From Raillietiella orientalis (taxonomy: Eukaryota): a DNA stretch of 20,000 bases. A program made the position numbers and the translations under genes. Where the stretch lies: assembly GCA_036172245.1 (NCBI GenBank), contig JAYWIR010000129.1, positions 61,850 to 81,849 on the forward strand, read 5' to 3'. Shown here piece after piece: positions 1 through 20,000 of this stretch (the first letter of the stretch is position 1; every line of letters begins with the position of its first letter). The notes beneath the pieces are model-generated. The model was not told the origin of the DNA and did no database searches. It was given only the letters and a program-made list of their open reading frames with translations.

Positions 1-3000
1 GTCTTCCTGGACGCTGACCTGTGTTCACGCGTCGGCAAACGGGGGAGGGTTGTGTCGACGTTGTCGGACCATTCCCGGTTAATTTTCGAGATGCGGCCTC
101 GCGACAAAGGACCGCCATCCAGGGATTGGCGTCTGCCGGGGGACTGGACGCGACTCTCAGGTGCGAAGGAACACCTTCGCGAATACCTTAGAGGCGTCAC
201 GCTCCGGAATCTCCAGGACTGGGACCTATTCAAGGAATCGGTCCGCGAGTTCTGTGAGCAGTTCCCCCTGGATCGCCTGCCCTCCGGATTCGGCGAGGGT
301 GCTCGCAACCATCAGGCCTATTTACAGGCTCGTAGGTACGAGAGAACCCCTAATGTCCGTCGCCTGGCCGAGTACCGCGCCGGGGCCGAACGCCAAGCCT
401 GGCAATCCGGGTCGGCCAGCTTGCTGGACGACCAGGGCCGGGAATGTTCGTCCCCGGCGTCGGTACGGCATCTCGTGCGGAGTTTTTATTCCTCCCTTCA
501 CGCCAGGGAGCCCCCGGATCGAAACGTTTCTCGGCGCTTGCTTCCGGATGGCACCCCGGCAATAGGGGAGGAAGAGATGGAAAGCCTCGACGAGCCTTTT
601 ACCACCGGCGAAATTCTCGCCGGTATCAAAAGGCTCAAGAGGCGTAAAGCTTCAGGGGAAGACGGCTTGCCTGCGGAGTTCTTTCAGAGCTTCGCGGAAG
701 AGCTGGCACCCCTGCTGCTTAAGTTGATCAGGCTGATCCGAGACGAAGGCGATGTTACCGCCTCGTTTCGGTCAGCCAGAGTGAGGCTCCTTCCGAAAGG
801 GGGAGACCTCAGGAATTTAAAGAACTGGCGTCCGATCACAATCGTGAATACGGACGCCACGTTGATAGCAGGGCTATGGGCTTCGCGTCTGGGGCAGGTG
901 GCAGAATCCGTAATTAGCCCGGAGCAGACTTATGCTGTTCCCGGGCGAAGTATGGATGCCAACCTCTTCTTCGCAAGCACATGGGTGCACCTGCAGAGAA
1001 GAGAGAAGAAAGGGATAGGGAAAGTCGGCAACCCCACATGGGGGCCGCCAGCCGGGCTGGGAAGGGACCCCCGGGCGGGGAAGGGGGCCCTAGCGCTCGC
1101 AGTCGATCTCCACAAGGCGTTCGACTGTGTAGACCAGGAACTTCTCTTGGAGCTCCTGGGTCGCATGGGCTTTCCACCCACCCTGATCTTCTACCTGCGC
1201 TCTTGCTGGCGGAATGCGATAATTACCGTCTTTTTCAGCGGTCAAAAGGTGTATGGCGTGCCGGTGCGGCGGGGCATAAGGCAGGGAGATAGCCTCAGCC
1301 CCCTGCTCTTCAGCACCTACTTTGAGTTGGTGCTGAGAGCGTACAGGGTGACTTTGGCTCCATTGGCGAGCTCGTGCCCCGGCACGCCCGCCGTAGCAGC
1401 GTACGCCGACGATCTTCTGCTTTTGTTGCCGATGTCCACCCCGGCAAAGGCGGTCGGAGACTTCTTCGATCTGCTCATCCGCGGGACCGGACTGCAGGTT
1501 AACAGGGCGAAGTCGTCGGTTGTGCCAATAGGTGCGGCGTGGGCAGGGCAGCAGGACTGGGTCCGTCTGGGGATCCCCACGGCGAGGTGCTTCAAGTACC
1601 TTGGTGTGCCGTTGGGGGACTACTCCCCTGCGGAAGCGTGGTCCAGCTGCCTCCAAAAAGTCCAGACGGCGATCGGCCCGTTCCTGGAAGGCGAGTTTCA
1701 CTTGCCGGAACGGGCCGCGGTTTGGAACGCCTCCGCGGCCCCCATCCTCCGCCCCTTGCTTTTTGTTTGCCCCCCCACCGTGGAATCCAAGAAGAGGACG
1801 AAGGACCTCCTCCGTATCGCCCTTTGGGGCAAGGGGAGGCCCCGAGTCCCACTGAAGGACTTGTGCGCTCCGCGTCGGGACGGCGGTCTTGGCCTCCTGA
1901 CGCTGGAGCGCGTGAGAAGCAGCGGCGGTGGCGAACCCTCGCCATCGCAGCGAAGATGTGGTGCACCCCTTGGTGCACTCCAGCCCGCCTCCTGGCCAGC
2001 CGTGTGTCCTGGTGCGATGGACTCGCGTCTTTTCTTCTCAGCCGTGGCCGGAAGATGCGAAGATGCGGCCTACTGCTCGGGCGCATGGCAACATTGGCCA
2101 AGGAGAACAGCTGGATGGTTTGCTGCCCCGCCAACTCCCCCGCCTGGCTGGAGGAAAATATTGGAACGTGGGCAGGAATTAACAAGACAAGCCACGAGAC
2201 GTGGAATCGTCTCCGATGCAGCCCCTACGCCCGCTGCACGCTGCGGAATCTCCTGGAGAGTCCAGCAAGATGCACGTGGGCAGAGACGACCTGTCTAGCT
2301 ACGGCGCTGCCCTTCCTGAAGAGGGCACTTCACAGCAGACGGACGCCAAGGTGGCAAGTCTCCTGCTGCATCGAGGGACGCGAAAAGTTAATCAGCGGCT
2401 GGACAACAGGAGAACTGGCAGACGCCACGACCCCGAGCGTCCAGCCGCGAGAACTAAGAAGATGGGGCGAGCTGCTGGCCATCCCTATGGATGTGCTGAA
2501 GTGGCCCCCGCTTCTTCAGGAATCCAGGATCCTGCCTCTTAAGTGGAAAGAGTCGGCGTTGCTGTTGTTGCATTGCGGTTTACCCTGCAACGCACGCCGC
2601 TCTCACTGGACAAGAGGAGTTGTGGATCCTGCGTGTGTCAGGTGCGAAGAGCGGGAATCGCTCTTCCACCTTATTGTGGACTGTGCTGCCCTTCGTCCCC
2701 TTTGGGAACGGTTTGGGACGATCCTCGGTCTCCCAACGGGCAGTTCCCCTAGTGCCGTTCTTCGGCCCCTCTTCGTGAAGGACGCTTTGCAGCCAGCCGC
2801 AGCCCTTGCAGCCTTGTGCTGCGTCCGAGGCATCGTGGCGGCATGGAGCGACACCAACAAGGAAGGAGTGGGTCAACACGCGAGGGATGTCTTCCCATAT
2901 GCCCAACGCTTCTTGCGAAGAGCTGCCGGATGGCCCCAACTGGGGAATATAAGGACTGACCTCGAGGGCTTCGTTCGACGGATGGGCCCTCTCCACAGCG

Positions 3001-3008
3001 AGCAGTGA
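1..3008 (+). pseudogene. E1 ORF2 (end of APE, reverse transcriptase, C-terminal zinc motif), one frameshift near 1918
   Basis: ORF 52..2298 has LSDH, KASGEDG, NWRPITIVN, DLHKAFD, GIRQGDSLSPLLF, YADD, FKYLGV, RRDGGLGL. It continues in the frame of ORF 1539..3008 (CVRCEERESLFHLIVDC). gtgagaagcagc here vs gtgaaaaagcagc in E2 shows a 1-nt deletion. Confidence 0.92.
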
Positions 3009-3220
3009 TCCCTTCCCTGCCCTCCAACCTCTTTTTGTTTGTTTCTTTTTATTTTACTTTTTGTCTTATCCCCATCCCCCTTCGCTGTCGGGGAGTGCCA
3101 CGCCGGGCTGCGTCCCGGTGTCCCGACAGGTCCTGTGTTTAGGGCCGTGGTGGGGCCTTGTACCACGCATGTAAAGTTTAATAATAAACGCCCCGGGCGT
3201 ACCCGGGTGATAACGCCGAA
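3009..3220 (+). other. E1 3' UTR: pyrimidine/T-rich tract, four predicted hairpins, AATAAA, no poly(A)
   Basis: ctgtcggg(3085)/cccgacag(3122), cgtggt(3146)/accacg(3162), gttta(3176)/taaac(3185), cccggg-cgta-cccggg (3192-3207). Confidence 0.8.
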
Positions 3221-3229
3221 GCCCTTAGC

Positions 3230-3245
3230 GAGTGGACGTGTGTTT
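3230..3245 (+). promoter_or_regulatory. Conserved element 5'-end motif GAGTGGACGTGTGTTT (candidate internal promoter)
   Basis: GGAYGTG core recurs at 8911, 11288, 15455 and 16673, each at an element start; 86 nt before the ORF1 ATG. Confidence 0.6.
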
Positions 3246-3319
3246 CCTTCGCTCCCGAGTGAGTCGACAGGAAGCGGTTTTTTGTTGTGTTGTTTAGTGC
3301 GGAACATCGTTGGTGTCCG

Positions 3320-5072
3320 ATGGCAGCGATGCCTGAGGACACCACGATGGAGGTAGGTGTGGGGGAGGCTTGCCCACCCCCACAGCCTACAGAATCAGGG
3401 GCGTCCGCCCCGGAATCGCCCTCGCCGCTAAGGGCGAGGAGCTGGAGCGCCTTGGTGGCCGCGCCGAGCGCGGAAACCATTACCGAGATGGCGGCCTACC
3501 GGGCAGCTGGGTACAAGCCCAGCTTGGTTTACCAGGTAGGCAATCTCTTTGACGGGCGAACTGCACGCGCTTTTTCGAAAGCGCTGCAGAACGCCAACGT
3601 GTTGGAAAAGGACCTTGACGGTCTATCCGTGCTAAGCGGGGGTCAGCGCGTTGAGGTTGTCTGCAAGGACATCACCTTGGCGCAAAGCTTGATAACCACC
3701 CCGCTGAACGTGGATGGACGCAAGATCCTACCAATCACGATGGACCGCTCCGTAGTGGTCCATCTGACAGGGATCACCAGCCGCATGACGCGATCTGCGT
3801 TTGATGATAAGCTGAAAAAATACGGAGAAGTTCACGCGTTATGGCCAAAGGCCACAATCTTTTATGGCTACGGTAGCCTTTTCGGAGGGCAGGCCGCCGC
3901 GCGTGTGACGGTGACGAAGGATAGTGGGATTTTCCACAAACTAGAGGTCAATGACGAAGTCGTAGACTTTTGGTACGTGGGGAAACCCCGCATTTGTGGC
4001 TACTGCAATGCAGTTAGGACACTTGCGCAAGTGGTGCCCGAACATTGTGTGCCACTTATGCGGGGAGAAGGCCACGTACTCGCCGCGTATGCCCTAAACG
4101 CCCCACTTCGGGTGCCGCCTGCTGCAAAAAGCACAGGCAAAACGCGGTAAACTGGTCGAAAGACCAAAGAGAGACTGGCCGGCAGCAGCCGCTAGCCCCT
4201 GTTCCTCCCACACAGGCGTCGGAAGAAAAAACCCTCCGAAGACGCGGGAGTCCAAGACGGCTGGCAGCTGGTCACCAAGGCCAGGAAGGGAAAAAAAGGT
4301 GCACCCCGCGGAACCCGCGAAAGCGGTAAAAAAGATAGCCGGCAAGGAGAAAAACCTGGGCCGCGCTCTAAGACCATGTGCGGGAATGTACGGTAGCACT
4401 GGAGCGCATAGCCGTTTCCGAGATTGCCACCCGGGGTGACGAGCCTTCCCTCGCCGTTTCCGCCTGCGCCCGAGGTTTCAGATGACAACCCTCTGTGCAA
4501 ACAGAGGGTGAGCCGCGCGACGCGCCTGTCGACACCGAGTACGCCGCGTTCGCAAAGGCGGCGGAGGAGCTCGCGGCCACGCTGGTGGAGCGTGAGAACC
4601 CCTCACGCAAGGCCGTGCGAAGGCCGGCTCCCGCGAAAAAGGCCCCCACAGGTGAGTCGGACCTGGGTGCCGGAAGTGCATCCTTCTCCTCGGAGGCACC
4701 CCGCAGGATGTCGGGACGCAAGTCAGGAGGCACCTCCCCTCCACCAGCGAGGAGGGGAAGCAGGAAGGTAGCGGTAGCGTGGGAATCCCGGAGTGGGAAC
4801 TCCCACGCTCGGAAGCCGTCGAGACGGCCACCTTCATGGAAGAGGGTGAGCAGGTGAGCGATGTCCTCCCTGCAGTCCCCGAGCCTGAACAGCCCGCCCC
4901 CATGGAGGAGGGCCATCAGGAAGGCGCGACCCCACCTGAGGGTGACCCGCTCGACGCGCCGTTACCCATGGAGGAGGGGGACCAGGTGCACGCAGCGCCT
5001 GACCCTCGTCCTCCACCTAGCGTTCCGCCCCAACAGGTGGCTGACGCCGCATCGCCATCTTCCCAGGAGTAA
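3320..5072 (+). pseudogene. E2 ORF1, gag-like nucleic-acid-binding protein, several frameshifts
   Basis: MAAMPED... aligns with E3 ORF1. First knuckle CGYCNAV is frameshifted at ~4015. Fragments 4495..4857 and 4779..5072 carry the tail, ending SPSSQE-TAA. Confidence 0.88.
4833..4985 (+). repeat. Three degenerate 66-nt (22 aa) PMEEG acidic repeats in the ORF1 tail
   Basis: ttcatggaagaggg (4833), cccatggaggaggg (4899), cccatggaggaggg (4965). Confidence 0.7.
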
Positions 5073-8000
5073 CAGTTGGGCTCGCCAGTCGCCGTCGTAT
5101 TCGCGCCGCCTGTTGGAACGTCAACGGGCTGCGCAACGACGGTAACATGCGAGTTACGGCCGACACCCTGCGTGAGCTCGACCTGGCCCTGCTGCAGGAG
5201 ATCCAAGTGATCACCGCGGCAGACGCCAAGGAGATCGAGACGTTCGCGGGTGGTCGGTTGCATTGGCGTTGCGGCCTCCGCAACACCTGCGGGGTCGCGT
5301 TCTTCGTGAAGCCGGCCATCGACGCTACCGTGAAGGGCGTGCGCTTCGATGACGACGTTCGGGTCGGTTAACTGATTCTCAGCTGGTCCGAATCGATCAA
5401 ACTGATCGTCACGAATGTGTACGGCTCCAGCGGTAAGCAGGGATACAGCGACCGCACCAGGCTGCTGGAATCCCTGAAGCGCGACTGGCTGGCGGACACC
5501 AACGTGCGGAAGGCTCACCTGATAGCGGGAGATTTCAATCTCCGTCTCCTAACAGGGTGAGCCAGAAACACAAGAGAACGCGATGAACGAGCTGTGCGCA
5601 GCCATGCGTGCGCGCAACTTGTCTGCGAAGAGGGGAATGGTCCGCAGCATCGACCACGTCTTCCTCCTCGCTGACCTGTGTTCACGGGTCGGCAAACGGG
5701 GGAGGGTTGCGTCGACGTTGTCGGACCATTCCCGGTTAATTTTCGAGATGCGGCCTCGTGACAAGGGACCGCCATCCAGGGATTTGCGTCTGCCGGGGGA
5801 CTGGACGCGACTCTCAGGTGCGAAGGAATACCTTCGCGAATACCTGAGAGGTGTCACGCTCCGGAATCTCCAGGACTGGGACCTTTTTAAGGAAACGGTC
5901 CGCGAGTTCTGTGAGCAGTTCCCCCTGGATCGCCTACCCCCCGGATTAGGCGAGGGTGCTCGCAACCATCGGGCCTATTTACAGGCTCGTAGGTACGAGA
6001 GAACCCCTGATGTCCGTCGCCTGGCCGAGTACCGCGCCGGGGCCGAACGCCAAGCCTGGCAATCCGGGTCGGCCAGCTTGCTGGACGACCAGGGCCGGAA
6101 ATGTTCGTCCCCGGCATCGGTACGGCATCTCGTGCGGAGTTTTTATTCCTCCCTTTACGCCAGGGAGCCCATGGATCGAAACGCATCTCGACACTTGCTT
6201 CAGGATGGCACCCCGGCAATAAGGGAGAAGGAGATGGAAAGCCTCGACGAGCCTTTTACCACCTGCGAAATTCTCGCCGGTATCAAAAGGCTCAAGAGGC
6301 GTAAAGCTACAGGGGAAGACGGCTTGCCTGCGGAGTTCTTTCAGAGCTTCGCGGAAGAGCTGGCAGCCCTGCTGCTTAGTGGATCAGGCTGATCCGAGAC
6401 GAAGGCGATGTTCCTGCCTCGTTTCAATGGCCAGATGAGGCTCCTGCCGAAAAGGGGAGGACCTCAGGGATTTAAAGAACTGGCGTCGGATCACGATCGT
6501 GAATACGGACGCCAAGTTGATTGCCGGGCTGTATGCGTCGCGTTTGGGGCAGGTGTCCAATTCCATAATTAGCCCGGAGCAGACTTATGCTGTTCCCGGG
6601 CGAAGTATGGATGCCAACCACTTCTTCGCATGCACATAGGTGCACCTGCAGAGAAGAGAGAAGAAAGGGATAGGGAAGGTCGGCAACCCCACATTGGGGC
6701 CGCCAGCCGGGCTGGGAAGGAAATCTCGGGCGGATAAGGCGGCTATAGCGCTCGCAGTCGATCTCCACAAAGCGTTAGACTGTGTAGACCAGTAACTACT
6801 CTTGGAGCTCCTGGGTCGCATGGGCATTTTACCCTTCCTGATTTCCTACCTGCGCTCTTGCTGGCGGAATGCGATAATTACCGTCTCATTCAGCGGTCAC
6901 AAGGTGCATGGCATGCCGGGGCGGCGGGGCATAAGGCAGGGCGATAGCCTCAGCTCCCTGCTCTTCAGCACCTACTTTGAGTTGGTGCTGAGAGCGTACA
7001 GGGTGACCCTCGCCCCATTGCCGAGCTTCTGCCCCGGCACGTCCGCCGTTGCAGCGTACGCTGATGATCTTCTGCTCTTGTTGCCAATGTCCTCCCCGGC
7101 TAAGGCGGTCGGAGACTTCTTCGTTCTGCTCAGCCGCGGGACCGGACTGCAGGTTAACAGGGAGAAGTCGTCGGTTGTGCCAATAGGTGTGGCTTGGGCA
7201 GGACAGCAGGACTGGTTCCGTCTAAGGATCCCCTCGGCGAGGTGCTTCAAGAACCTTGGTGTGCCGTTTGGGGACTACTCCCCTGCGGAAGCGTGGTCCA
7301 GCTGGCTCCAAAAAGTCGAGGCAGCGATCGGCCCGTTCCTGGAAGGCAAGTTTCACTTGCCGGAACGGGCCGCGGTTTGGAACACCTTCTCGGCCCCCAT
7401 CCACCGCCCTTTGTTTTTGTTCGCACCCCCACCTTGGAATCCAAGAAGAGGACGAAGGACCTCCTCCGTATCAACCTTTGTGGCAAGGGGAAGCCCCGAG
7501 TCCCACTGAAGGACTTGTGCGCTCCGCGTCGGGACGGCGGTCTTGGCCTCCTGACGCTGGAGCGCGTGAAAAAGCAGCTGCGGTGGCGAACCCTTGCCAT
7601 CGCAGCGAAGATGTGGAGCACCCCTTGGTGCACGAGGGCCCGCCTCCTGGCCAGCCGTGTGCCCCGGTGCGATGGACTCGCGTCCTTTCTTCTGAGCCGT
7701 TGCCGAAAGATGCGAGGATGCGGCTTACTCCTCAAGCGCATGGCAACATTGGCCAAGGAGAACAGCTGGATGGTTTGCTGCCCCGCCAACTCCCCCGCCT
7801 GGCTGGAGGAGAATATTGGAACTGGAGGAGAATATTGGAACGTGGGCAGTAGTTAACCAGAGAAGCCACGAGACGTGGAATCGTCTCCCATGCAGCCCCT
7901 ACGCCCGCTGCACGCTGCGAAATCTCCTGGAGAGTCCAGCAAGATGCACGTGGGCAGAGACGACCTGCCTAGCTACGGCGCTGCCCTTCCTCAGGAGGCA

Positions 8001-8681
8001 CTTCACAGCAGACGGACGCCAAGGTGGCAAGTCTCCTGCTGCATCGAGGGACGCGAAAAATTGATCAGCGGCTGGACAACAGGAGAACTAGCCGACGCCA
8101 CGACCCAGAGCGTCCAGCCGCGAGGATTATTAAGATGGGACGAGCTGCTCGCTATCCCCAGGGATGAGCTGAAGTGGCCCCCGGTGATGAAAGAATCCAG
8201 GATCCTGCCCCTTAAGTGGCAAGAGTCGGCGTTGCTTCTGTTGCACTGGGGTCTACCCTGCAACGCGCGCCGCTTCCACTGCACGAGGGGAGCTGTGGAT
8301 CCCGCGTGTGCCAGGTGCGGGGAGCGGGAGTCGCTTCCCCACCTTATTGTGGATTGTGCTGCCCTCCGACCCCTTTGGGAACGGTTTGGGACGACCCTCG
8401 GGCTACCTACAGGCAGCACCCCCAGAGACGTTCTTCGGCCCCTCTTCGTGAAGGACACACTGCAGCCAGCCGCAGCCATCGCAGCTTTTTGCTGCGTCCG
8501 AGGCATCGTGGCGGCATGGAGCGACGGCAACAACGAAGGAGTGTATCCACAGGCGAGGGATGTCATCCCGTATGCCAAACGCTTCTTGCGAAGAGCTGCC
8601 GGATGGCCCCAACTGGGGAATATGCAGACTGACCTCGAGGGCTTCGTTCGACGGATGGGCCCTCTCCACAGCGAACAGTGA
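5072..8681 (+). pseudogene. E2 ORF2 (APE + RT + Cys/His motif), multiple stops and frameshifts
   Basis: CWNVNGL (5111), LLQE, NVYG, AGDFN, SIDH, LSDH, GIRQGD, YADD, GGLGL, CARCGERESLPHLIVDC; stops at 5369, ~6637 and ~6793. Confidence 0.92.
7803..7840 (+). repeat. Perfect 19-bp tandem duplication ctggaggagaatattggaa x2
   Basis: Single copy at the homologous E1 position (~2148-2166); causes a frameshift in E2. Confidence 0.92.
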
Positions 8682-8893
8682 TCCCTTCCCTGCCCTCCAA
8701 CTTCTTTTTGTTTGTTTCTTTTTATTTTACTATTTGTCTTATCCCCATCCCCCTTCGCTGTCGGGGAGTGCCACGCCGGGCTGCTTCCCGGTGTCCCGAC
8801 AGGTCCTGTGTTTACGGCCGTGGTGGGGCCTTGTACCACGCATGTAAGGTTTATTAACAAACGCTCCGGGCGTACCCGGGTGATAACACCGAA
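8682..8893 (+). other. E2 3' UTR, near-identical to the E1 3' UTR
   Basis: Same hairpins at offset +5673; terminal hairpin tccggg-cgta-cccggg at 8865-8880; AACAAA in place of AATAAA. Confidence 0.8.
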
Positions 8894-10208
8894 TCCCCTT
8901 TGGGGAGAGAGGATGTGCTTTTCCTGCGCTCCGCCTGCGTGGCAAGGCGAGTGGTTTTCCCTTGAGTGGTTTGTGCATGCACATCGTCGGTGTCGGATGG
9001 CAGCGTTGCCAGAGGACAATGCGATGGAAGTAGGCGTGGGGGAGGCTTGTTCGCCCCCACAGCCCACTGGATCAGGGGCATCCGCCTTGGAATCGTCCCC
9101 GGCGACGCCGAGGTCATGGAGCGCCATGGTGGCTGCGACAAGCGTGGAAGCCATGGCCGAGATGGAAGCCTACAAACAAGCGGGGTATAAACCCTCGCTA
9201 GTCTACAAGGTAGGCAACCTTTTTGATGGGCGAACTGCACGCGCCTTTACGAAGGCGCTGCAGGACGCCAATATTCTCGAACAAGATCTTGACGGCCTCT
9301 CCGTCCTCAGCGGCGGGCAGCGGGTCGAGGTGGTATGCAAAGATATCACCTTGGCCCAACGCCTGATCACCGACCCGCTGATCGTTGATGGTCGGAAAAT
9401 CTTAACGGTGACGATGGACCGCTCGGTAGTGATCCATCTCACTTGGATCTCCAGTCGCATGACTAGGTCAGCGGTTGGAGATCAGTTGCGAGAGCACGCA
9501 GAAGTGCACGCGTTGTGGCCGAAGCCCACGATTTTCCAAGGCTACAATATCCTTTTAGGGGGTCAAGCTGCGGCGCGTATCACCGTAAACGAGGGTGGTG
9601 CGCTTCCCCACAAGCTGGAGGTCTGCCAAGAAGCGGTGGACCTCTGGAACGTGGGGAAACCCCAATTTTGTCGCTACTGCAATGCAGTAGGGCACCTACG
9701 AAAAAGGTGCCCGAAAATTGTGTGCCACCCATGCGGGGAAAAGGATCACGTTCGCGTGAGCCCCAAGCGCCCCACCCCGGTGCCCCCTGTCGCCAAAAAG
9801 GCGCAGGGAAAACGTGGAAAACTGGTAGAAAGACCAGTTCGCGAAAATGGCCGTTTCCAACTGCCAGCCTCCCTTCCTCCCGTACAGACGTCGGAGGAAA
9901 TAGCTCCCGTGGACGCGGGAATGGAGGAGGGTTGGCAGCTGGTTCAGGCCAGAAAAGAAAAAAAAAAGAAATTAATGCCAGAAGAAAAGTCGGAGAAGAG
10001 AACTGCCGGCAAGAAGAAAAAAGCCGCGCCGCTTTCAAAAAAAAAACAACTTCGCAAAGGCTCGGTGGCACTGGAACGCTCAGTCGTTCCGGCCGAGTCC
10101 GCACGCGGCAATGTTCGCGGAACAGCTGATGCGGACGCGATGAATACTCGCGTGGACGAGCCTATTCTATGTTTAGAGGGTGAGACGCGAGACTCGCGCG
10201 CCGACTGC

Positions 10209-10320
10209 CAGGACGCCGCGCTCCATAAAGTCGCGGAGGAGCCCGCGGCAACGGTCGCTGCTGGCGAAGACGCGGCCTTCGAGAAAGCGGCGGAGGAGCT
10301 CGCAGCAACGCTCGCCGAGC
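10209..10320 (+). repeat. Degenerate 57-nt (19 aa) tandem duplication QDAALHKVAEEPAATV / EDAAFEKAAEELAATL
   Basis: Units start at 10209 and 10266; E2 and E6 have one copy. Confidence 0.75.
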
Positions 10321-10571
10321 GCGAAACCCCGTCGCGCAAGGGCGTAAGCAGGCCAGCTACGACGAAAAAGGCCCACGCAGGTGAGTGCGACCTGGGGGCC
10401 GGAATCGCCTACTCCTCCTCGGAGGCACCCCCCAGGAAGTCGGGACGCAAGTCCCAGAAACCCAGGAGGCGCCTCCCCTCCAGCAGCGAGGAGGAGAAGC
10501 CGGAAGGCAGCGGAAGCGTGGGAATCCCGGAGGGGGAACTCCCACGCCCGGAAGCCGTCGAGTCGGCCACC

Positions 10572-10724
10572 CCCATGGAGGAGGGTGAGCAGGGGGGTGA
10601 AGGCCTCCCTGCAGTCGCGGAGCCTGAGCAGCCCGAACCCATGGAGGATGGCGAACAGGTAGGCGCGACTCCACCTGAGGGTGATCCGGCCGACGCGCCG
10701 GCACCGATGGAGAGGGAGGAACAG
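10572..10724 (+). repeat. Three degenerate 66-nt PME(E/D/R) repeats in the E3 ORF1 tail
   Basis: Units at ~10572, 10638 and 10704, same period as in E2. Confidence 0.7.
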
Positions 10725-10812
10725 GTGCCTCAGTACCTGTCCCTCCTCCCCCTCCACCTAGCGTCCCGCTTCAGCAGGAGGCGTACGCTGCATCGCCGTT
10801 TTGCCAGGACTA

Positions 10813-11277
10813 ATACCTGGGCTCGCCAGTCGCCGTCGGATTATCGCGGCCTGTTAAGATGTCAACGGGCTGCGCGACGACGGCCACAGGCGAGATACGG
10901 CCGACACCCTGCGTGGGCTCGACCTGGCGCTGCTGCAGGGGATCCACGTGATCTGTGCGGCGGATGTCCAGGAAATCGAGACCATCGCGGGGGGTCGGTT
11001 GTGCTGGCAATGCGGTTGCCGCAACACCTGCGGGGTCGCGTTCTTCGTGAAGCCGGCCATCGACGCTGCCGTAAAGGGCGTGCGGTTTGATGACGACGGT
11101 CGGATCGGCCAGCTGTTTCTCAGCTGGTCCGACTCTATCGACCTAATCGTCACAAACGTGTATGGCCGCAGCGGCAAACAGAGGTACCGCGACCGCACCA
11201 GGTTGCTGGAATCCCTGAAGCGCGACTGGCTGGCGTATACCAATGTGCGAAAGGCTCACCTGATAGCAGGAGACTTT
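10813..11277 (+). pseudogene. E3 ORF2 N-terminal APE fragment
   Basis: C*DVNGL (TGG to TAA at 10855), LLQG, CGVAFFVKP, NVYG, AGDF. Confidence 0.88.
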
Positions 11278-11350
11278 GCGGACGTACGGACGTGTTTTTT
11301 TTCGCTCTCGTCTCCGTGCTTTCATCCGCTTCATCTTGGTGTCGTGAATT

Positions 11351-13281
11351 TTGACGACGAAGTCGAGCCAACTGCAAGCCACTGAAGTTGGAGGTATAGC
11401 GTCCGGATCTGCAGTCGCGGAAGCGACGGCCGCCTCCTCTTCGTCTGCCCCGCCAATGGAGAGGAGCTTTGCTGACGTTGCTGCCACAGCAGCCGTCGAA
11501 GGGGGACCACAATACGAGTCGATGTTGCGGGCATACGTAGCCCAAGGCTATAGACCGGCTCTCCGATATAAGATGAGTGGTTTTCTTTATGCGCGCGACG
11601 GGAATCAGTTCAACGATGAACTGACCCGTGTTGGCGTGCGGCAGGAGGACCTCCTCGCCATTATGCCCGTAAAAGATATGGGATTTTTCAAGGTGCGTTG
11701 CAAAGACGCTGCACTTGTGCAACGCTTGCTGCGCATCCCGTTGTCGATTCGTGGCCAGAAATCTTCCCGGCCGTCATGGACGACTCCTTGGAGGCAGAGA
11801 TTTCCGACATCCAGTCGGAAATCTCCGACATTGATATTCGGAACGCGCAGGCGAAATTCGCCACGGTCCATGCGCTGTGGAGGGAGCGTAGCAGCCTCAA
11901 GGACTTCCCGTCCATACACAGCGGAGTCGCTGAAGTCCGGCTTACAATGCCCAATTGCCGTCTGCTGCCCACCAAACTACAGGTGAAAGACACGGTCGTT
12001 CACCTGTGGTTCGTGATCAAAGTAAGAACGTGCGAGCAATGCGGGAAGGAGGGGCATTGTTTGGATGAATGCCCCTCTAGGAAATGCCGTGATTGCAAAC
12101 TTTCCGGGCACCAATTGAAAAATTGCCCGGATCTTTTGCGAAAAAAGGCAGCCGCGGAGCTCCATTTTAAAGAACAAAGCGCGGATAAAAAGAAAAAATC
12201 CGTGAAAAACCTGAGGACCCCACGGCAGAAATTCCGTAAAAACGCGAGGCGGAATGTCGCCCCAAAGCAGAAGGAAACCTCGCACGCGAAGCCCTTCGCG
12301 CCCCCTCTCGCTACAAGAGAGTTGCAAAAGAAAGGGTGCGGGGAATCCAAGGCAATGGTAAGTCCCCTTACGCGAAATAGCTGTCCTTCCCAAGCACGCC
12401 CGGCTCTCTCGGAGTTTGGGCAACCGGCGGGGACGCCAATGGACAACGGCGGTAAGGACACTTCCAGTACCGTCAGATCCATTTCTTCACCTCCTGCAGG
12501 GGCTGCAAAGCCCGAATCGGGTAAGAAGGGTTGTGCCGTGTCGACTTCGAAAGTCGGCAAAATAAAATCCGCGTCCCAGTCCAACACCGCGAAAGCGGAG
12601 AAACATCTCACGCCGTCGCAGTCGGAGAGCAAGCTCTCGGCTAGCGCGGATGAAATGCCAACGAAGGGATTAAAAGCCTTTACGATGGCAGCGCCCATGA
12701 CGAGCGTGTCGAAGCCATCGAAAGTGCACCCGTCCAAAGACGCGGATGGCTTCAAAGATGGCAATGGAGCACAAGCTCCATTTACGGCGCCACGCGAAGT
12801 GAGAAACCGTAATGAAGTAAAGAAGACTTCAGCAAAGGTCCCTCGTGCAACTGCGCGTGAGCACGCTGAGAACGCGCGCGCCGGGAAAGCAGCCGTCACC
12901 AAAAGCGATGCCCTTGTGACGGAAAATGACAACAGGACAGCTGTCAATCCAGCAGAACCTGTCACTACTTCGCGGAAGGCCAAAACCCGATCGAACATGC
13001 GCCGGTCGGACTCCGAAATGGATGCCGTGCCGATCACCGAGACGACGACAACTCGTTCAAAAGCGTGTGCGCGTTGATCAAAACTAGGCAGCCAGGCAAC
13101 GCACGCCGCGAAGCAACGCGAAGTCTTCACGTAACCCGACAGGGTCAAGCCTGGCGTGGAGGCATTACATGCATGCAGCACGACGGAGGACGGTGGCGAC
13201 CGTCCCCTCCAGCCAGTCGTGCTGCTCGCCGTCTCCTCGCCGGATAAAGCGAGCAAAAAGCCGCCACCTTCCCAGCAGAAA
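11351..13281 (+). pseudogene. E4 ORF1, gag-like with two CCHC knuckles; frameshift ~11758, premature stops at 13075 and ~13132; start codon uncertain
   Basis: RSFADVAA and AYVAQGYRPALRYK match family A/C RSWSAxVAA and AYxAxGYxPxLxYK; CEQCGKEGHCLDEC, CRDCKLSGHQLKNC. The same frame runs on to PPPSQQ at 13261-13278. Confidence 0.82.
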
Positions 13282-14997
13282 TGCGTGGAATCGCGTCTTC
13301 TCGTCGTCTGTCCGTAACGTTTCGGAACGTGAACGGACTTTAGAACGACGAGAAGAGGCGATTAGTCGCCAACGCCCTGCGCCCCTTCGACCTCACGCTC
13401 CTGCAGGAGATTCACGTAATCTCCGACGAGCCGGCAGCCGAAATCGAGGAGCGCGCAGGCGGAACGCTACATTGGCGATGCGGCGGCGCACACACGTGCG
13501 GCGTCGCGTTCCTCGTAAGAGGAAAAATGGCGGAAGCGGTGCGTAGTGTTCGTTTCGATGACGACGGACGGATAGGCCAACTTGTCATCAAGTGGTCCGA
13601 GTCCATCGATCTCGTCGTTACGAACGTCTACGCGCCGAGTGGCTCTCGCTACCTCGAAGAAAGAGTACCTTACTTCGGTGAGGTGCAGAGCCACTGGCTC
13701 AACAACTTTGGCTTCCAAGTGGCGCCTCTCGTCGCTGGGGACTTCAACGTCCGCTGCTCTCCGACGATTGGAGCCGCCCGAGGGAGCGCGCGCTGCACGT
13801 CGAGATGTGCCCGTCCGTGCACGCCGCCAACTTGATGGTCAGCTAACCTGGAATGGAAAGATCGCTTGATCACGTTTTCCTCGATGAAAACCTGCATTGG
13901 CGTGTGGGTAGGAGAGGAAGATTGTTGACTAGGCTTTCTGACCACCACAGGTTGGAGTTTGTGATCCTTTCGCCAGGCAGGGGGCCTTTGTGGCAAAGCT
14001 GGAGGATGCAGGCGGACTGGCTCAGCCAACCGAAGGCTGAGGAGCATCTACGTGGACACCTCCGAGGCTTTGCCATTCAAGAAATTGCGGACTGGGACGA
14101 TCTCAAAAGATCTGTTCGCGAGTTCTGCCGCCAATTCCCCTTGCACCGGCTTCCACGCAGTTTCGGAGAGAGCGTTGTTCACAGTAGAGACTTTCTGCAG
14201 GCCCGCACGTTTTCGAGACGCGCGGATGTCGCGCGTCTAGCGGAGTACAAGACGAGGGCCGAGGGCCAGGTCTGGCAGTCCGGAGCAGCATGCCTGTTGG
14301 ACGACAAGGGCCAGGAATGTTCGGCCCCAGCCGAAGTACGCCGCATTGTGAGACGCTACTACTCCTCGCTCTACGCGGAATCCCCGACGGAGGATATTCT
14401 TTCTGAGATACTCCTGTCTCAGGATGCTCGTGTTGTCGGCGAGGAGCAACGCTAACGTCTCAACGAGCCCTTCGCGGCGGATGAATTTTCGTCCGCCATC
14501 GCTGGGCTGAAGAGACGAAAGGCGCCAGGCGAGGATGGGCTCCCTGCAGAGTTTTATCAGTGCTTTGCAGTGGAGCTCATTCCCTTGATGCTGAGACTCG
14601 CCACGCTGATGAGGGAATCCGGGAATGTCCCGGATTGCTTCCGCTCAGCGAAGGTGCGTCTCCTGCCGAAAGGCGGAGACTTGCGTCAACTTAACAACTG
14701 GCGTCCGATCACCTTGGTGAACTCGGACGTCAAGTTGTTTTCCAAGCTGTGGGTCGCGCGGTTAGGAAGTATCTCGGAATCTGTGGTGAGCCCGGAACAA
14801 ACCTACGCGGTTCCGGGACGATCCATGGAGGCGAACATCCTTTTCGCGCGTACATGGATGCAGCTGCAGGAAGTTGTGGCGCAGCAAACCAGGCTGCTGA
14901 GAAAGTCACTGCCGCAGGCAAGAAGAACAGGCGCCGATGGCAGGAGGGAACGCCAGGTGCCTTGGCGGTCGCGGTCGATCTTCACAAGGCGTTCGAT
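13281..14997 (+). pseudogene. E4 ORF2 (APE + partial RT), degenerate
   Basis: ATG 13281 MRGIASSRRLSVTFRNVNGL*, LLQE, NVYAP, AGDFN, SLDH, LSDH, KAPGEDG, NWRPITLVN, DLHKAFD. Confidence 0.88.
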
Positions 14998-15447
14998 TTT
15001 CACCCGGATTTCTCCGAGTCGTTTATTAAAAAAATAAACTTCGTAAACAAATTATTGATGGCTGTGGCAATGTTCCAGCCAGAAGCTAACAACCACGGCG
15101 CCTGCCAATTCACCGGTTTCTAGACCGGTACGGTCCACCAAGGCAGCAGGGGAAAGGGGAAAAACAAAAAAAATAAACGAAAAAAAACAAAACAAAGGGT
15201 GGGAGGGAACAAGAAGGGATCACTGTTGCTGCTGGGGCCGCATCATTCCTCTCAGGATGCTGGCAAGCTCTTGTTTTTTGTGAACATCCAGGTGGGGCCA
15301 TCGCGACGCCCTCCTCAGGAATTCGGAGGCGCACTGGATGGCTTTCTGATCGGTAGGTCCTCCCGTCGCCGTGCTCCAGGCGGCGACGATCCCACGAAGG
15401 CAGCACAAGGCTGCTATCGAAGACGCTGGCTTGCGACGGCGCTCTTG
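14998..15447 (-). mobile_element. X: inverted 3'-terminal fragment of a related element (ORF2 C-terminus + 3' UTR)
   Basis: Minus strand encodes PASSIAALCCLRGIVAAWS...FLRRASRWPHL...QQ*, homologous to the E1/E2 ORF2 end, followed by TGATCCCTTC, a T-tract, hairpins and aataaacgactcggagaaatccgggtgaaa. Confidence 0.9.
15220..15445 (-). pseudogene. ORF2 C-terminal ~70 codons of fragment X
   Basis: 3' part of track ORF 15220..15555; CCLRGIVAAWS motif. Confidence 0.85.
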
Positions 15448-15448
15448 A

Positions 15449-16664
15449 GAGGGTGGACGTGCTTTTGAGGTGCTCTGCGTTTTTCTCGCGAGTGTTTTCC
15501 GAGTTTTCAGGTTTGAGCGGTTGTTCCTGGGCAGGGATGCCCGAGGACGCCGCAAAGACGGCGGAGGGGGGCGAGCGAGCCTCGTCCCCCCAGCCCATGG
15601 ATGTGGGGGCCATCTCCCCCACGGAATCGTCCCCCGCCCCGGCGAGGGCTTGGAGCGCGGTGGTGGCGGCGCCTGCGCCGCCCCTCGCAGAGGAACAGCG
15701 GGCTTACATGGCCGACGGGTATAACCCGGCCTTGTTATACAAGGTAGGTGGCCTGTACTCTTCCGCGTTATTACGGTCTTTCGCGGCCGAGTTCAAGAAA
15801 TTAAAAGTCCCGGAGTACGAAGTCCTCGGACTTTCGGTTAGGAGTGGCGGGCAGCTGGTCGAGCTGAACTGCAAGTCTGCAGGGATGGCTCAGCAGCTGT
15901 TCCGCCTGCCGGTGACCGTGAACGGTCGAAGAATCTTCCCGTTCACGGCGGACAACTCCATCGTTGTCCACCTCACCGGTATTACCATGAGAATGGCTAA
16001 GACTGCCGTTCGCGAGAGTTTGGAGAAGTTCGGGACGGTCCACGCGTTGTGGGCAAAACCCAATGTACTGGGTTACACCAGGGCATTTAGTGGTTACGCC
16101 GCTGCCCGCGTGATCGTCCGAGCCGAGGGTGGGCTACCCCACAGACTGCAGTTCGGGGAGGAGGAGATCGACCTGTGGTATGTGGGGAAACCCGTATACT
16201 GCGGCTTTTGCCAGGTGTCGGGGCATTTAAAAAAGAAATGCCCCAACATCGTGTGCTTGGGCTGTGGGGAGAAGGGGCACATCAGGCGGATGTGCCCCAA
16301 CCGAAAAAGGTCCGTTCCGTCAGGCGCGAGGAAGGAAGAGACGCCGAAGGAAAAGGACCGAAGCCAACAACTGGCAGAACCCCGCCCTGCCGACCAACCC
16401 GCTACTCAGGCATCCACCAGCGAACAACCAGCTGGAGAAAGCGCCGAGAACGAGGAAGGTTGGCAAAAGGTAGAAAGGAAGAAGCCCCAGAAGAAGGAGG
16501 CAAAAAAGATAAACAAGGCGGTGCCGAAAAAGCAGAAACCGGTCGTCCGCGCTTGTACGGTGAAGATCGAACGCGTCTCGATCGCCAGAGCCGTAAAGAA
16601 AGTAACGGTAAAGGCGATCGATACCGTCGATCCTGAGCCGGTCGTGCCTGCAGTGACGTCACCG
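15449..16664 (+). mobile_element. E5: 5' part of a family C element, interrupted in ORF1 by E6
   Basis: gagggtggacgtgctttt start; ends at gcagtgacgtcaccg, whose homologue in E6 (18027-18041) continues further. Confidence 0.88.
15537..16664 (+). CDS. E5 ORF1, gag-like zinc-knuckle protein, open but 3'-truncated
   Basis: MPEDAAK..., CGFCQVSGHLKKKC and CLGCGEKGHIRRMC intact. Confidence 0.85.
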
Positions 16665-16756
16665 CGGTGAGTGGACGTGTTTTTTCGGTGCTCCGGAAAA
16701 TCGTCTGTTTTTGCTGGTGTTTGTGGGTTTTTCAGCGCGGTTGTTCCTGGGCAGAA

Positions 16757-18502
16757 ATGCCTGAGGACGCCGCTAAGGCGGTGGAGGGGGGCGAGCGAGC
16801 CTCGTCCCCCCAACCCATGGATGTGGGGGCCAGCTCCCCCACGGATTCGTCCCCCGCCCCGGCGAGGGCTTGGAGTGCGGTGGTGGCGGCGCCCGCGCCG
16901 CTTCCCACAGAGGAACAGCGGGCCTACGAGGCCCACGGATACAACCCGTCCCTACTCTATAAGGTAGGTGGGTTGTACTCGCCGGTAATGCTCCGCACGT
17001 TCGCCGCGGAATTTAAAAAGTTGAGAGTGCCCGAAGAAGAAGTTCTCGGCCTCTCCGTGCGCAGTGGCGGTCAGCTCGTCGAGCTGAACTGCAGAACTGC
17101 AGGAATGGCACAGCAATTGCTGAGATGCCCGGTGACTGTGAACGGGAGAAGGATTTTCCAGTTCACAGCCGACAAATCCATCGTCGTCCACCTCACGGGC
17201 ATAACGATGAGGATGGCGAAGAACGCCGTACGAGCAGAACTCGAGAAATACGGCACCGTCCACGCTCTGTGGGCTAAGCCCAACACCCTGGGTTATACCA
17301 GGGCGTTCAGTGGCTATGCCGCCGCGCGTGTGACGGTCCGAGAGGAAAGTGGTTTACCCCACCGACTGCAGGTCGATGATGAATACATCGACCTGTGGTA
17401 CATAGGGAAACCTAAATTTTGTGGAAATTGCGAGGCCATCGGGCACCTCAAACGGAGGTGCCCTAACATCGTGTGCCTCCGATGTGGTACCAAGGGACAC
17501 GTACGAAAGGTGTGCCCTTCTCGTTTTGCGTCCACTCCTGCTGTCAACAAGAAAACCGAGTCGCCACAGGTGCAGGACAAACAGCATCCCCCATCGGGTG
17601 AAAGCTCGCAAGCAGGCGAGAAACCGACGCCGGAGGAAGAAAAGGCGGAGGATGGCGAAGCTGTCGCCGAAAACAGCTGGAAGTTGGTGAAGAAAAAGGA
17701 GAGCAAGGGGAAAGGTACGGCCCCCAAGAAAACGGTAAAAACGGTGGCGAAAAGCGTCCGTCGTTCCACCGTAAACATCGATCGCTTTACCGCGAAGGCT
17801 TCCTCCAGCAAGCCGTCGATCGATACCGCAGCTGCGGCATCGATCGATAGAGCGGTTCCGGCCCCGTCCACCGAAATCGCTACGGTAGCGATCGATATCG
17901 CGGCACCTGTTGCCGCGATCGATACTATTGTTCCAGTTCCGTCCGCTGGAAGTGTTGTAGTGGCGAGTTGAAGCTCAGCCGCTGCTGTTCCGATCGATAG
18001 CTCGCCGGTTGCAGCTATCGATTCGGCAGTGACGTCACCGGACTCGCCAACAGGCGGCGAAGTCTGCGATGACGCGGAACGCATCTCCGATGCAACGTTC
18101 GCGCAAGCCGCGGAAGAGTTGGCTGCCTTGTTAAGGCAGCCCGTCAAGGCCGAGAAGAAGGCCGTTCGACGCCCGGCTACGGCGAAGGACCCAGAAAACA
18201 GCGAGTCCGACGCCGAAACCGGGAACTCGTCGACCGTAGGGTTGCCGAAAAGAAAAAATAAAAGTTCAACGGGAGCTCGTAGGCGTGCTGTCCCCACTCA
18301 GGTAGAGGTGGAAATGGCATCCGACAGCGAAGAGGAGTCAATGTGCGTTCCAGCGTGCGACTCTGCGCCTAAGAGCATCCTATTCCAACTGTTGACACAG
18401 TCCTCGGCCGACGGAGCACACCAAACTCCTTCCGAATCCGTCGGCGTGGACGCGGAACACCCGTTTCCTGAAAGGGAGACGGTTTCCTCCACACCACCAT
18501 AA
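16757..18502 (+). pseudogene. E6 ORF1 with one in-frame TGA at 17969-17971
   Basis: CGNCEAIGHLKRRC, CLRCGTKGHVRKVC; ORF 18029..18502 is in the same frame and has DATFAQAAEELAALL. Confidence 0.88.
17774..18025 (+). repeat. Degenerate ATCGAT-core coding minisatellite (xIDxA peptide repeats)
   Basis: Seven clusters of atcgat/gatcgat in ~250 nt: NIDR, SIDT, SIDR, AIDI, AIDT, PIDS, AIDS. Confidence 0.7.
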
Positions 18503-18510
18503 ATAAACCT

Positions 18511-20000
18511 ATGGGTGGGCTCGCCTGCTGCCGTCGCTTGCGAATTACTTGTTGGAACGTCAACGGGTTGAGCAGCGACGGCAAGAGGCGAGACGCTGTG
18601 GAGGAACGGAACAGATCACTCCTGCGGAGTGGCCTTTTTGCTGAAGCCGTCCGTCGAAAACTCACTGCGTAGTGCACGGTTCGACGGGGACGGTCGAGTT
18701 GGGCAGCTTGTTCTCAAGTGGTCCGACTCGATCGACCTCGTGGTCATGAACCTGTACGCTCCGGTGGGCAGCCACAGGGCCGAGGAACGCACTGCGTTCT
18801 TCGAATCCCTGCGGCGAGACTGGTTGGCCGAAGCAGGCGTGCGAAGGGCGCACCTCATTGCGGGCGATTTCAATCTCCGCCTGCTGGCAGGTGCGCCCAA
18901 CCGACGAGCACAGCTGGTCAACGAGTTGTGCGCAGCAATGAATGCGCGCAACTTGTTGGCCGGTGATGCCGGGAGAGATCGGAACATCGACCACATGTTC
19001 CTCGACAACCACCTGTGCACGCGGGTGGGAACTCGAGGAACGCTCCCGGCAGAGCTGTCCGACCATCCACGGCTCGTGCTCGAGTTACATCCGCGCAATA
19101 AGGGCCCTCCCCTGAAAACATGGCGCCTGCCAGGGGATTGGTTGCGCCTCGAAGGAGCGGCGGAACATCTACGCTCCTTCCTGCGAGGATTCCAGCTTCA
19201 GACGCTCGCGGACTGGGACGAAATGAAGTGCTCAGTCCGCGAGTTTTGCGACCAGTTTCCCCTGGAACGTCTTCCGCCGGGCTTCGGCGATGGGGTCAGG
19301 AACGAGCGGGCCTACCTTCAGGCCCGCCGGTATTCCAGGCGTCCCGACGTCCGTCGCTTGGCGGAATTCGAAGCTGAGGCGGAGAGGCAGGCCTGGCAGT
19401 CAGGCTCGGCCTGCTTGCTGGACCATCAGGGCCAAGAACACTCCAGCCCAGCTCAGGTAAGCCGCATCGTGCGGGAGTTTTATTCCTCCTTCTACGCGCC
19501 GTTAACACCGGAGCGCCATTTAGCGCAGCGCCTGCTGCCGGATGGCCTCCCCGCGCTCAAGGAGGAGGATCGTTTCAGGTTGGCAGAACCGTTCACGATG
19601 GTGGAGGTCGTCTCCGCCATCAGCAGGCTGAAGAATAGGAAGGCACCAGGGGAGGACGGCCTGCCCGCGGAGTTTTACCATCGCTTCGCGCCAGAGCTGG
19701 CCCCCCTGGTGCTCAGGTTAAGTACGCTGATCCGCGAACACGGCGAAGTTCCCGCCTCGTTCCGGTCAGCAAAAGTATGTCTCCTGCCGAAGTCAGGAGA
19801 CTTACGCAACATTGGCAACTGGCGTCCCATCACAGTGGTGAATGCGGACGCAAAGTGCATGCCAAGTTGTGGGCTGAGCGTTTGGGGCGGGTGGCCGCTT
19901 CCGTGATCAGTCGGGAGCAGACCTACGCTGTTCCCGGACGAAGCATGGAGTCAAACCTGCTCCTCGCCAGCACATGGTGGCAGTTGCGACAACGCGTTGC
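18511..20000 (+). pseudogene. E6 ORF2 (APE + start of RT); ~104-nt deletion near 18605 and frameshift near 19857
   Basis: MGGLACCRRLRITCWNVNGL, LQE segment missing, then NLYAP, AGDFN, NIDH, LSDH, KAPGEDG, NWRPITVVN, EQTYAVPGRS. Confidence 0.9.

Follow-up and report, generated by a model that had tools for sequence, protein, structure and literature searches.

We analysed a window of 20,000 nucleotides from Raillietiella orientalis (the whole stretch under study, G000:C129:61850-81849), which forms the last 20 kb of the 81,849-nt contig C129 in an assembly of 210 Mb and 491 contigs. As an earlier note on this DNA had described, the window is tiled almost without spacers by seven pieces of L1/Tx1-like long interspersed nuclear elements (LINEs), which together cover 19,974 of the 20,000 bases and of which six lie on the forward strand. 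Most probably the pieces belong to sister families of one divergent L1-group (Tx1-like) lineage encoding an apurinic/apyrimidinic (APE)-type endonuclease, and judging from their sequences these families are specific for short sites in each other’s coding DNA. The tiling would thus result mostly from sequence-specific insertion into sister families and not from self-nesting in a telomere-like domain.

Family-specific insertion sites

Each family was found at a fixed site of 8–15 bp that belongs to a coding motif in elements of other families; the version of this motif that the family itself carries is rarely used. Sites were counted by eye from printed matches, for some patterns among the first 100 matches. 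Family A inserts antisense at the PGFG codons in the linker of open reading frame (ORF) 2, and leaves a 10-bp target-site duplication (TSD); a complete copy with both TSDs is present on contig C4. Among the first 100 of 152 A-type 3’ hairpins, 37 were located at the PGFG codons, 19 in head-to-tail arrangement, 22 at the ORF1 site of the sister family K, 6 at other kin sites and 16 elsewhere. Family B inserts in sense orientation at the GDFN codons of the endonuclease of A-type hosts and generates an 8-bp TSD. Its 5’ ends follow the host GDFN codons in 81 of the first 100 cases (of 103), the other 19 being head-to-tail. Likewise 59 of its 87 3’ ends run into the host endonuclease, 20 are head-to-tail and 8 lie elsewhere, so that 79/87 are at the site or in a tandem. 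Complete B inserts in which the host sequence resumes and both TSDs are preserved were found singly on C5 and as tandems on C26 and C63.

The target of family X is the KAFD codons of the reverse transcriptase, in antisense orientation and with a 14-bp TSD. The 33 X 3’ ends comprise 20 antisense at KAFD, 9 head-to-tail, 1 in sense orientation at KAFD and 3 others (29/33 antisense or tandem). The sites of families E5 and E6 are located in kin ORF1 and are used in sense orientation: 18 of 36 E5-type ends lie at one kin ORF1 site, 12 are head-to-tail and 6 are elsewhere, and the site of E6 in the ORF1 of E5 is used again on C10 and C53 and, by a sister subfamily, on C187. A published criterion regards an element as target-specific when over 20% of its flanks are of one type (PMC4494074). 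The corresponding fractions are above this value for B (59/87), X (20/33), E5-type (18/36) and A-type ends (37 of the first 100) but not for the E6-type hairpin group.

With regard to the hosts, 25 B insertions were distributed over K (13), A (11) and an E6-type element (1), and B’s own GDFN codons were used in 0/25 cases. For X the hosts were B, E5-like, Y and K-like elements, with X itself hit at 0/30 loci. The codons that B and X carry at their own motifs differ from their usual targets. Targeting between families can be mutual, as K inserts in the ORF1 of Y, and Y at the KAFD codons of A and K. Family A is occasionally found in A (C129:50757). The proposal of the earlier note that the elements target their own kin therefore stood in a more precise form than claimed: kin are hit, the hosts being mostly sister families and contacts within a family mostly tandems separated by a TSD.

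Tiling of the window by element pieces

The bounds of the pieces were derived from self-BLAST, motif scans and inspection of the junctions and are approximate; all features lie on the forward strand except X. E1 (1..3213) is the 3’ part of a family-A LINE with the endonuclease tail, the reverse transcriptase, the C-terminal zinc finger, a T-rich 3’ untranslated region (UTR) and AATAAA plus a terminal hairpin without poly(A). Its 5’ end, of the A2 type, lies 2.5 kb upstream of the window. A single 10-bp TSD (3214..3223), which is an antisense copy of host ORF2 PGFG codons, separates E1 from E2 (3224..8886), a full-length family-A copy of the A1 subfamily with a length of 5.66 kb and with stops and frameshifts in both ORFs. 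Another single 10-bp TSD (8887..8896) is followed by E3 (8897..11280), the 5’ part of an A2 copy comprising ORF1 with CCHC knuckles and the endonuclease as far as its GDFN codons. One more copy, E0, extends the array upstream of the window; on its 5’ side it is flanked by antisense host sequence. The head-to-tail order E1>E2>E3 given in the earlier note was confirmed, and its 10-nt gaps are the single TSD copies that are expected from repeated insertion at one site. A1 and A2 alternate along the E0–E3 array. The ORF2 of E2 additionally contains a 19-nt duplication (7803-7841).

The last bases of E3 (11273-11280) are a decayed copy of the family B target, and E4 (11281..14996), the 5’ part of a family-B LINE, is inserted there in sense orientation at the host GDFN codons. 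E4 ends at its own KAFD codons (14983-14996), which are the target of X (14997..15430, reverse strand), a 434-nt 3’ end of a family-X LINE lying antisense at this site. E5 (15431..16663) consists of a 5’ end and the start of ORF1; it opens with a 14-nt tag (15431-15444) and ends at the E6 target (about 16650-16663). E6 (16664..20000), a young LINE inserted in sense orientation in the E5 ORF1, contains ORF1, the endonuclease and the start of the reverse transcriptase and is cut by the contig end. Degenerate ATCGAT-rich repeats are present in its ORF1 (17816-17940).

That each of these pieces interrupts the previous one, as had been suggested, holds for E4 in E3, X in E4 and E6 in E5. For E5 an interruption of X is likely only, the junction being atypical: the 14 nt at 15431-15444 are not X sequence, and 26 other X copies continue differently at this point. 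Where E5 is inserted in other hosts, the same tag is present at its 5’ end, as it is in two tandems. Short 5’ tags of E5-type copies (15431-15444; L130, L139, L140, L146-L148) match the E5 tandem spacer, one of them with 13 nt of the hairpin of the upstream copy, which suggests transcripts starting in the preceding tandem unit. Elsewhere in the assembly nested insertions were seen with both junctions complete.

At least four families (A, B, X and E5/E6) are present in the window, with an ORF2 identity of 51–62% between them, in agreement with the at least three divergent families previously noted. For the whole contig 97.9% of the sequence matches the family references, some of which come from C129 itself; this includes one distant LINE family. 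The latter shares 25–29% ORF2 identity with the main group and is located in the same nests (C129:24517-29666, C129:36900-42100, C1:3081-7512). No Rfam family matched in the window.

Independence of the insertions and alternative explanations

For 26 host-flanked B copies (25 of the 30 loci fetched plus E4, leaving out five tandem loci) we compared inserts and hosts. At a distance of 10% there are 2 clusters of inserts and 5 of hosts, and inserts differing by 1.0% and 3.9% are located in hosts differing by 7.7% and 35%, respectively. Similarly, the E6 copies of the window and of C10 are 99.0% identical in the 5’ 1.2 kb and 99.8% in ORF2, and their E5 hosts 92.0%. Furthermore, 5’-truncated X copies of 185, 744 and 1,202 nt were found at KAFD, each with its own TSDs. 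Since the hosts differ, the 5’ truncations differ and near-identical inserts occur in diverged hosts, repeated independent insertion is shown.

Several observations weigh against the targeting explanation. Among the 26 B copies, host distances correlate weakly with insert distances (Mantel rho 0.38, p 0.02), indicating joint duplication or joint ageing for part of the junctions, and a number of loci are probably duplicates. One of four B tandems (C63) has the older copy upstream. The X/E5 junction of the window lies away from the usual site of E5, and the E6-type hairpin group is mostly scattered, with about 22/29 at unrelated sites. The exact-match patterns used for counting are biased towards young copies and overlook sites whose anchored position is a T. 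Finally, the earlier note had held that copies dispersed mostly in unique DNA would speak against its reading, and for the wider superfamily this was partly found: with a small library, kin sequence was missing immediately downstream of 19 among the first 30 hairpin ends on C1.

Some of these points would be expected if a few ancestral nested insertions had multiplied through segmental duplication, through unequal exchange or as chimeric units that retrotransposed. The order E>E>B>X recurs on C49 and in part on C26, and probable duplicates were identified (the pairs C113/C187 and C161/C427, and C150); the Mantel correlation points in the same direction. However, amplification would account neither for one site being common to hosts of different families nor for near-identical inserts in diverged hosts and varying truncation lengths, and copies adjacent in a tandem resemble a young unlinked copy at least as closely as they resemble each other. 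As the only cause it is already contradicted by the data, and we regard it as very unlikely. A recent tandem duplication of an A1-A2 unit was also rejected as the source of E0-E1-E2-E3, as E2 and E0 are 93.7% identical and thus no closer than E2 and unlinked copies (94.4–94.8%). Three of the four B tandems have an upstream copy that is closer to a young unlinked copy, and within E0–E3 it is E0 that most resembles the young C4 copy. This polarity is suggestive of a re-use of the intact host-side junction. At two loci rearrangements were noticed. On C84 (118000-128300; L090, L091) a 3.65-kb unit consisting of a Y 5’ part at KAFD and an A 3’ part forms a tandem of three, probably because a nested junction was duplicated. 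At C129:48019-59256 the two halves around an inner antisense A copy differ in the host sequence at the junctions, which suggests recombination or deletion between nests.

The elements could also insert genome-wide with a loose nick preference of 3–8 nt, copies in kin DNA persisting because they are harmless or heterochromatic. The looseness of the E6-type group, the many dispersed 5’-truncated relatives and two off-target X-type copies (L019, L151), which keep the first three target bases and 14-bp TSDs, are compatible with this explanation. But differential survival would not select one nucleotide on one strand within about 5.6 kb of kin sequence, as observed for B (79/87) and X (29/33). In addition no kin DNA was detected in 27.7 kb downstream of 18 dispersed copies that had been chosen as not flanked by kin, which suggests that kin DNA is sparse outside the nests. 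Altogether we consider survival without targeting improbable, and specific insertion into sister families better describes these sites.

As an alternative the earlier note had proposed that the families target a special chromosomal domain. In the manner of Zepp or HeT-A, centromeric or telomeric chromatin would attract the elements and nesting would follow. Besides the 97.9% of C129 that match these families (with the above reservation on the references), the contig ends are in line with this idea: when considering the 40 ends of C1–C20 (200 bases each), at least 15 are located in nests and one is telomeric, comparable to ZeppL at contig ends (PMC8226300). On the other hand at least three nests were found on C5 (2.3–2.6 Mb, 3.5–3.6 Mb and the contig end), four groups on C26 and several on C13. 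Telomeric sequence was rare; a first pattern gave no match and a second matched on C13 and C166 only. TTAGG is a telomere repeat typical of arthropods, and the (TTAGG)n array at the end of C13 is about 115 kb away from the nearest nest. Most telomeres seem to be unassembled, which weakens this distance comparison. Tethering to chromatin could act in addition, but by itself would not yield nucleotide precision. Several nests per contig, their distance from the C13 telomere, mixed orientations and the presence of TSDs leave a domain as the cause unsupported, and the chance that it is responsible is slight, marginally below that of amplification.

Chimeric joining of repeats during assembly, which might be suspected as the contig terminates inside a nest, is the least credible explanation and can practically be dismissed. 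Junctions of these types, TSDs included, are found on many contigs at dozens of loci that have diverged, and a 3,755-nt contig of run X1 aligns to 11252-14996 with about 94.5% identity, reaching from E3 sequence to the KAFD site, although its E3 side is borderline as a bridge. The nests account for many breaks in this assembly.

Lineage, proposed mechanism and known systems

The families share the features of APE-type L1-group elements: an ORF1 with CCHC knuckles, an ORF2 with N-terminal APE endonuclease, reverse transcriptase and C-terminal zinc finger, as well as TSDs and 5’ truncation. In a Pfam scan of nine proteins we found RVT_1, Exo_endo_phos (the APE endonuclease) and mostly weak zf-CCHC matches, with zf-RVT below the cut-off, and the endonuclease matched human L1 endonuclease structures best. 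An uninterrupted ORF2 frame of 1,215 codons is present in the family A copy on C4. In family A, ORF2 (window 5066-5120; L076:2075-2170) starts without ATG and overlaps the end of ORF1, and may thus be translated by an unusual route. Subfamilies differ mainly at their 5’ side: A1 and A2 (3224-5072 vs 8897-10812) share about 90% in ORF2 but only 75% in the 5’ UTR and ORF1, and for E5 and E6 (15455-16663 vs 16673-17870) the values are 93% (nucleotides) and 68%. Both pairs suggest exchange of the ORF1 module.

Common to all 5’ ends is GGACGTG with a T-rich stretch after it. The 3’ ends consist of AATAAA, a hairpin arm/loop of 11–12 nt, CCGGGTR and four nucleotides ending in AA, without poly(A). 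APE-type L1-group LINEs usually end in a 3’ poly(A) or simple-repeat tail, which in this lineage is replaced by the hairpin end. Genome-wide the 3’ motif occurs 2,367 times, and the reversed control motif 0 times. Folding z-scores were -0.55 for E1, -0.19 for E2 and -2.95 for X; because they are weak for E1 and E2, the hairpin structure is supported mainly by its conservation at the 2,367 ends.

A search with the uninterrupted family A ORF2 returned two close relatives from metagenome data with 68% and 70% identity, other matches being near 30%. These two proteins are P0002 and P0016. In both of our trees, which are quick runs with long branches, P0002 clusters with family X, and the lineage is thus present in other samples too. 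Among the best named matches were a “pol-like protein” from zebrafish and, at 31%, a “transposon TX1” protein from alligator. A quick tree of 31 reverse transcriptase regions, built without Repbase references, placed the families in a long-branch clade apart from Tx1-named vertebrate proteins. Type I ORF1 proteins contain an RNA recognition motif (RRM) plus CCHC (PMC5203782); in our Pfam scan of ORF1 CCHC was found, and no RRM matched at E 0.05. The behaviour is that of a Tx1 element targeting transposable elements, the lineage itself belonging possibly to Tx1 and possibly to another L1 group, and the suggestion of an undescribed lineage is plausible in view of only two relatives at 68–70% before identities drop to about 30%.

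With respect to the mechanism, the endonuclease would nick the family-specific site and target-primed reverse transcription, to which the TSDs and 5’ truncations point, would start at the 3’ hairpin end. No microhomology between element 3’ ends and the host upstream of the nick was seen by eye for A, B and X. Annealing of read-through RNA has been discussed for R1Bm and SART1 (PMC7265360), and annealing of such RNA to the TSD possibly assists priming here. Specificity would reside in surface loops of the endonuclease. Sister families with different targets have closely similar endonucleases (A vs K 89–93%, E5 vs E6 86–91% identity), and short segments following NVNGL, QETHV, W-x-C and YAP account for most of the fixed differences. 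Together with published effects of surface-loop variation on specificity in this enzyme family (PMC1950540) and the recognition of about 10 bp by Tx1L and TRAS1 (PMC1919474), this suggests loop-encoded specificity. The beta-hairpin region before IDH was considered as well and is an unlikely source of the differing targets, since A and K, like E5 and E6, hardly differ in it. If the host-side junction stays intact and is used again, head-to-tail arrays with the newest copy upstream would result, and thousands of dead kin copies would serve as safe landing sites, so that nests grow on themselves.

Similar behaviour is known from Tx1-clade LINEs that target other transposons, such as Tx1L in Tx1D and the crocodilian Tx1-Mar, Tx1-8_Crp, Tx1-4_AMi, Tx1-9_AMi and SINEU-3 (PMC4494074). 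They share with the present families the APE-type L1-group organisation, a CCHC ORF1, sites inside a mobile element, tandems flanking one TSD and both orientations. However, the published targets are DNA transposons, long terminal repeat (LTR) elements, RNA genes and microsatellites, whereas here several families use different sites in sister-LINE coding motifs. Zepp of Coccomyxa and ZeppL of Chlamydomonas are likewise L1-type LINEs in nested clusters where assemblies break, and a GC content above that of the flanks (58% vs 52% for the present nests) is a further similarity. Zepp is one family nesting in its own copies, each chromosome having a single cluster, and ZeppL-1 does not occur elsewhere (PMC3446292, PMC8226300); in contrast we found many families, fixed nucleotides, hosts across families, several nests per contig and dispersed relatives. 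R1 also forms head-to-tail copies with one TSD between them by repeated insertion at one site (bioRxiv 10.1101/158386), its target being 28S rDNA and not, as here, the ORF of another LINE. A centromere atlas preprint (10.64898/2026.09.17.752431) describes nested LTR clusters which, unlike the present ones, mostly lack shared TSDs. Full-text literature searches, with subscription journals, supplements and Repbase Reports outside their scope, found no LINE families targeting each other’s coding motifs; such a case could be contained in entries of Repbase.

In HeT-A/TART/TAHRE and GilM/GilT, retrotransposons arrayed head-to-tail in one orientation and almost without spacer extend chromosome ends, those of the HeT-A/TART/TAHRE type taking the place of telomerase repeats. 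The arrays of this assembly differ in having TSDs, both strands and internal nests, and TTAGG arrays are present on C166 and at the end of C13.

As a broader picture, which we put forward tentatively and with somewhat less than even confidence, at least eight sequence-specific families (A, K, B, QEI, X, Y, E5 and E6) of an isolated LINE lineage might form a community whose main niche is each other’s genes. Competitors would be disabled at conserved endonuclease, reverse transcriptase or ORF1 codons, the own motif of a family differing from its target and some pairs being reciprocal, and an arms race via few changes in endonuclease loops would accompany self-growing nests of up to several hundred kilobases. 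Natural pairs of endonucleases with about 90% identity and different targets of 8–15 bp (A vs K, E5 vs E6), with numerous sites mapped for each, would make a change of APE-type endonuclease specificity directly testable. Sequence-specific LINEs are known to shelter in rDNA, snRNA genes, microsatellites and telomeres, as well as in transposons to which they are unrelated. If sister LINEs each occupy a separate stretch of codons in the others, this would represent a new kind of safe haven and, at the same time, direct competition between elements.

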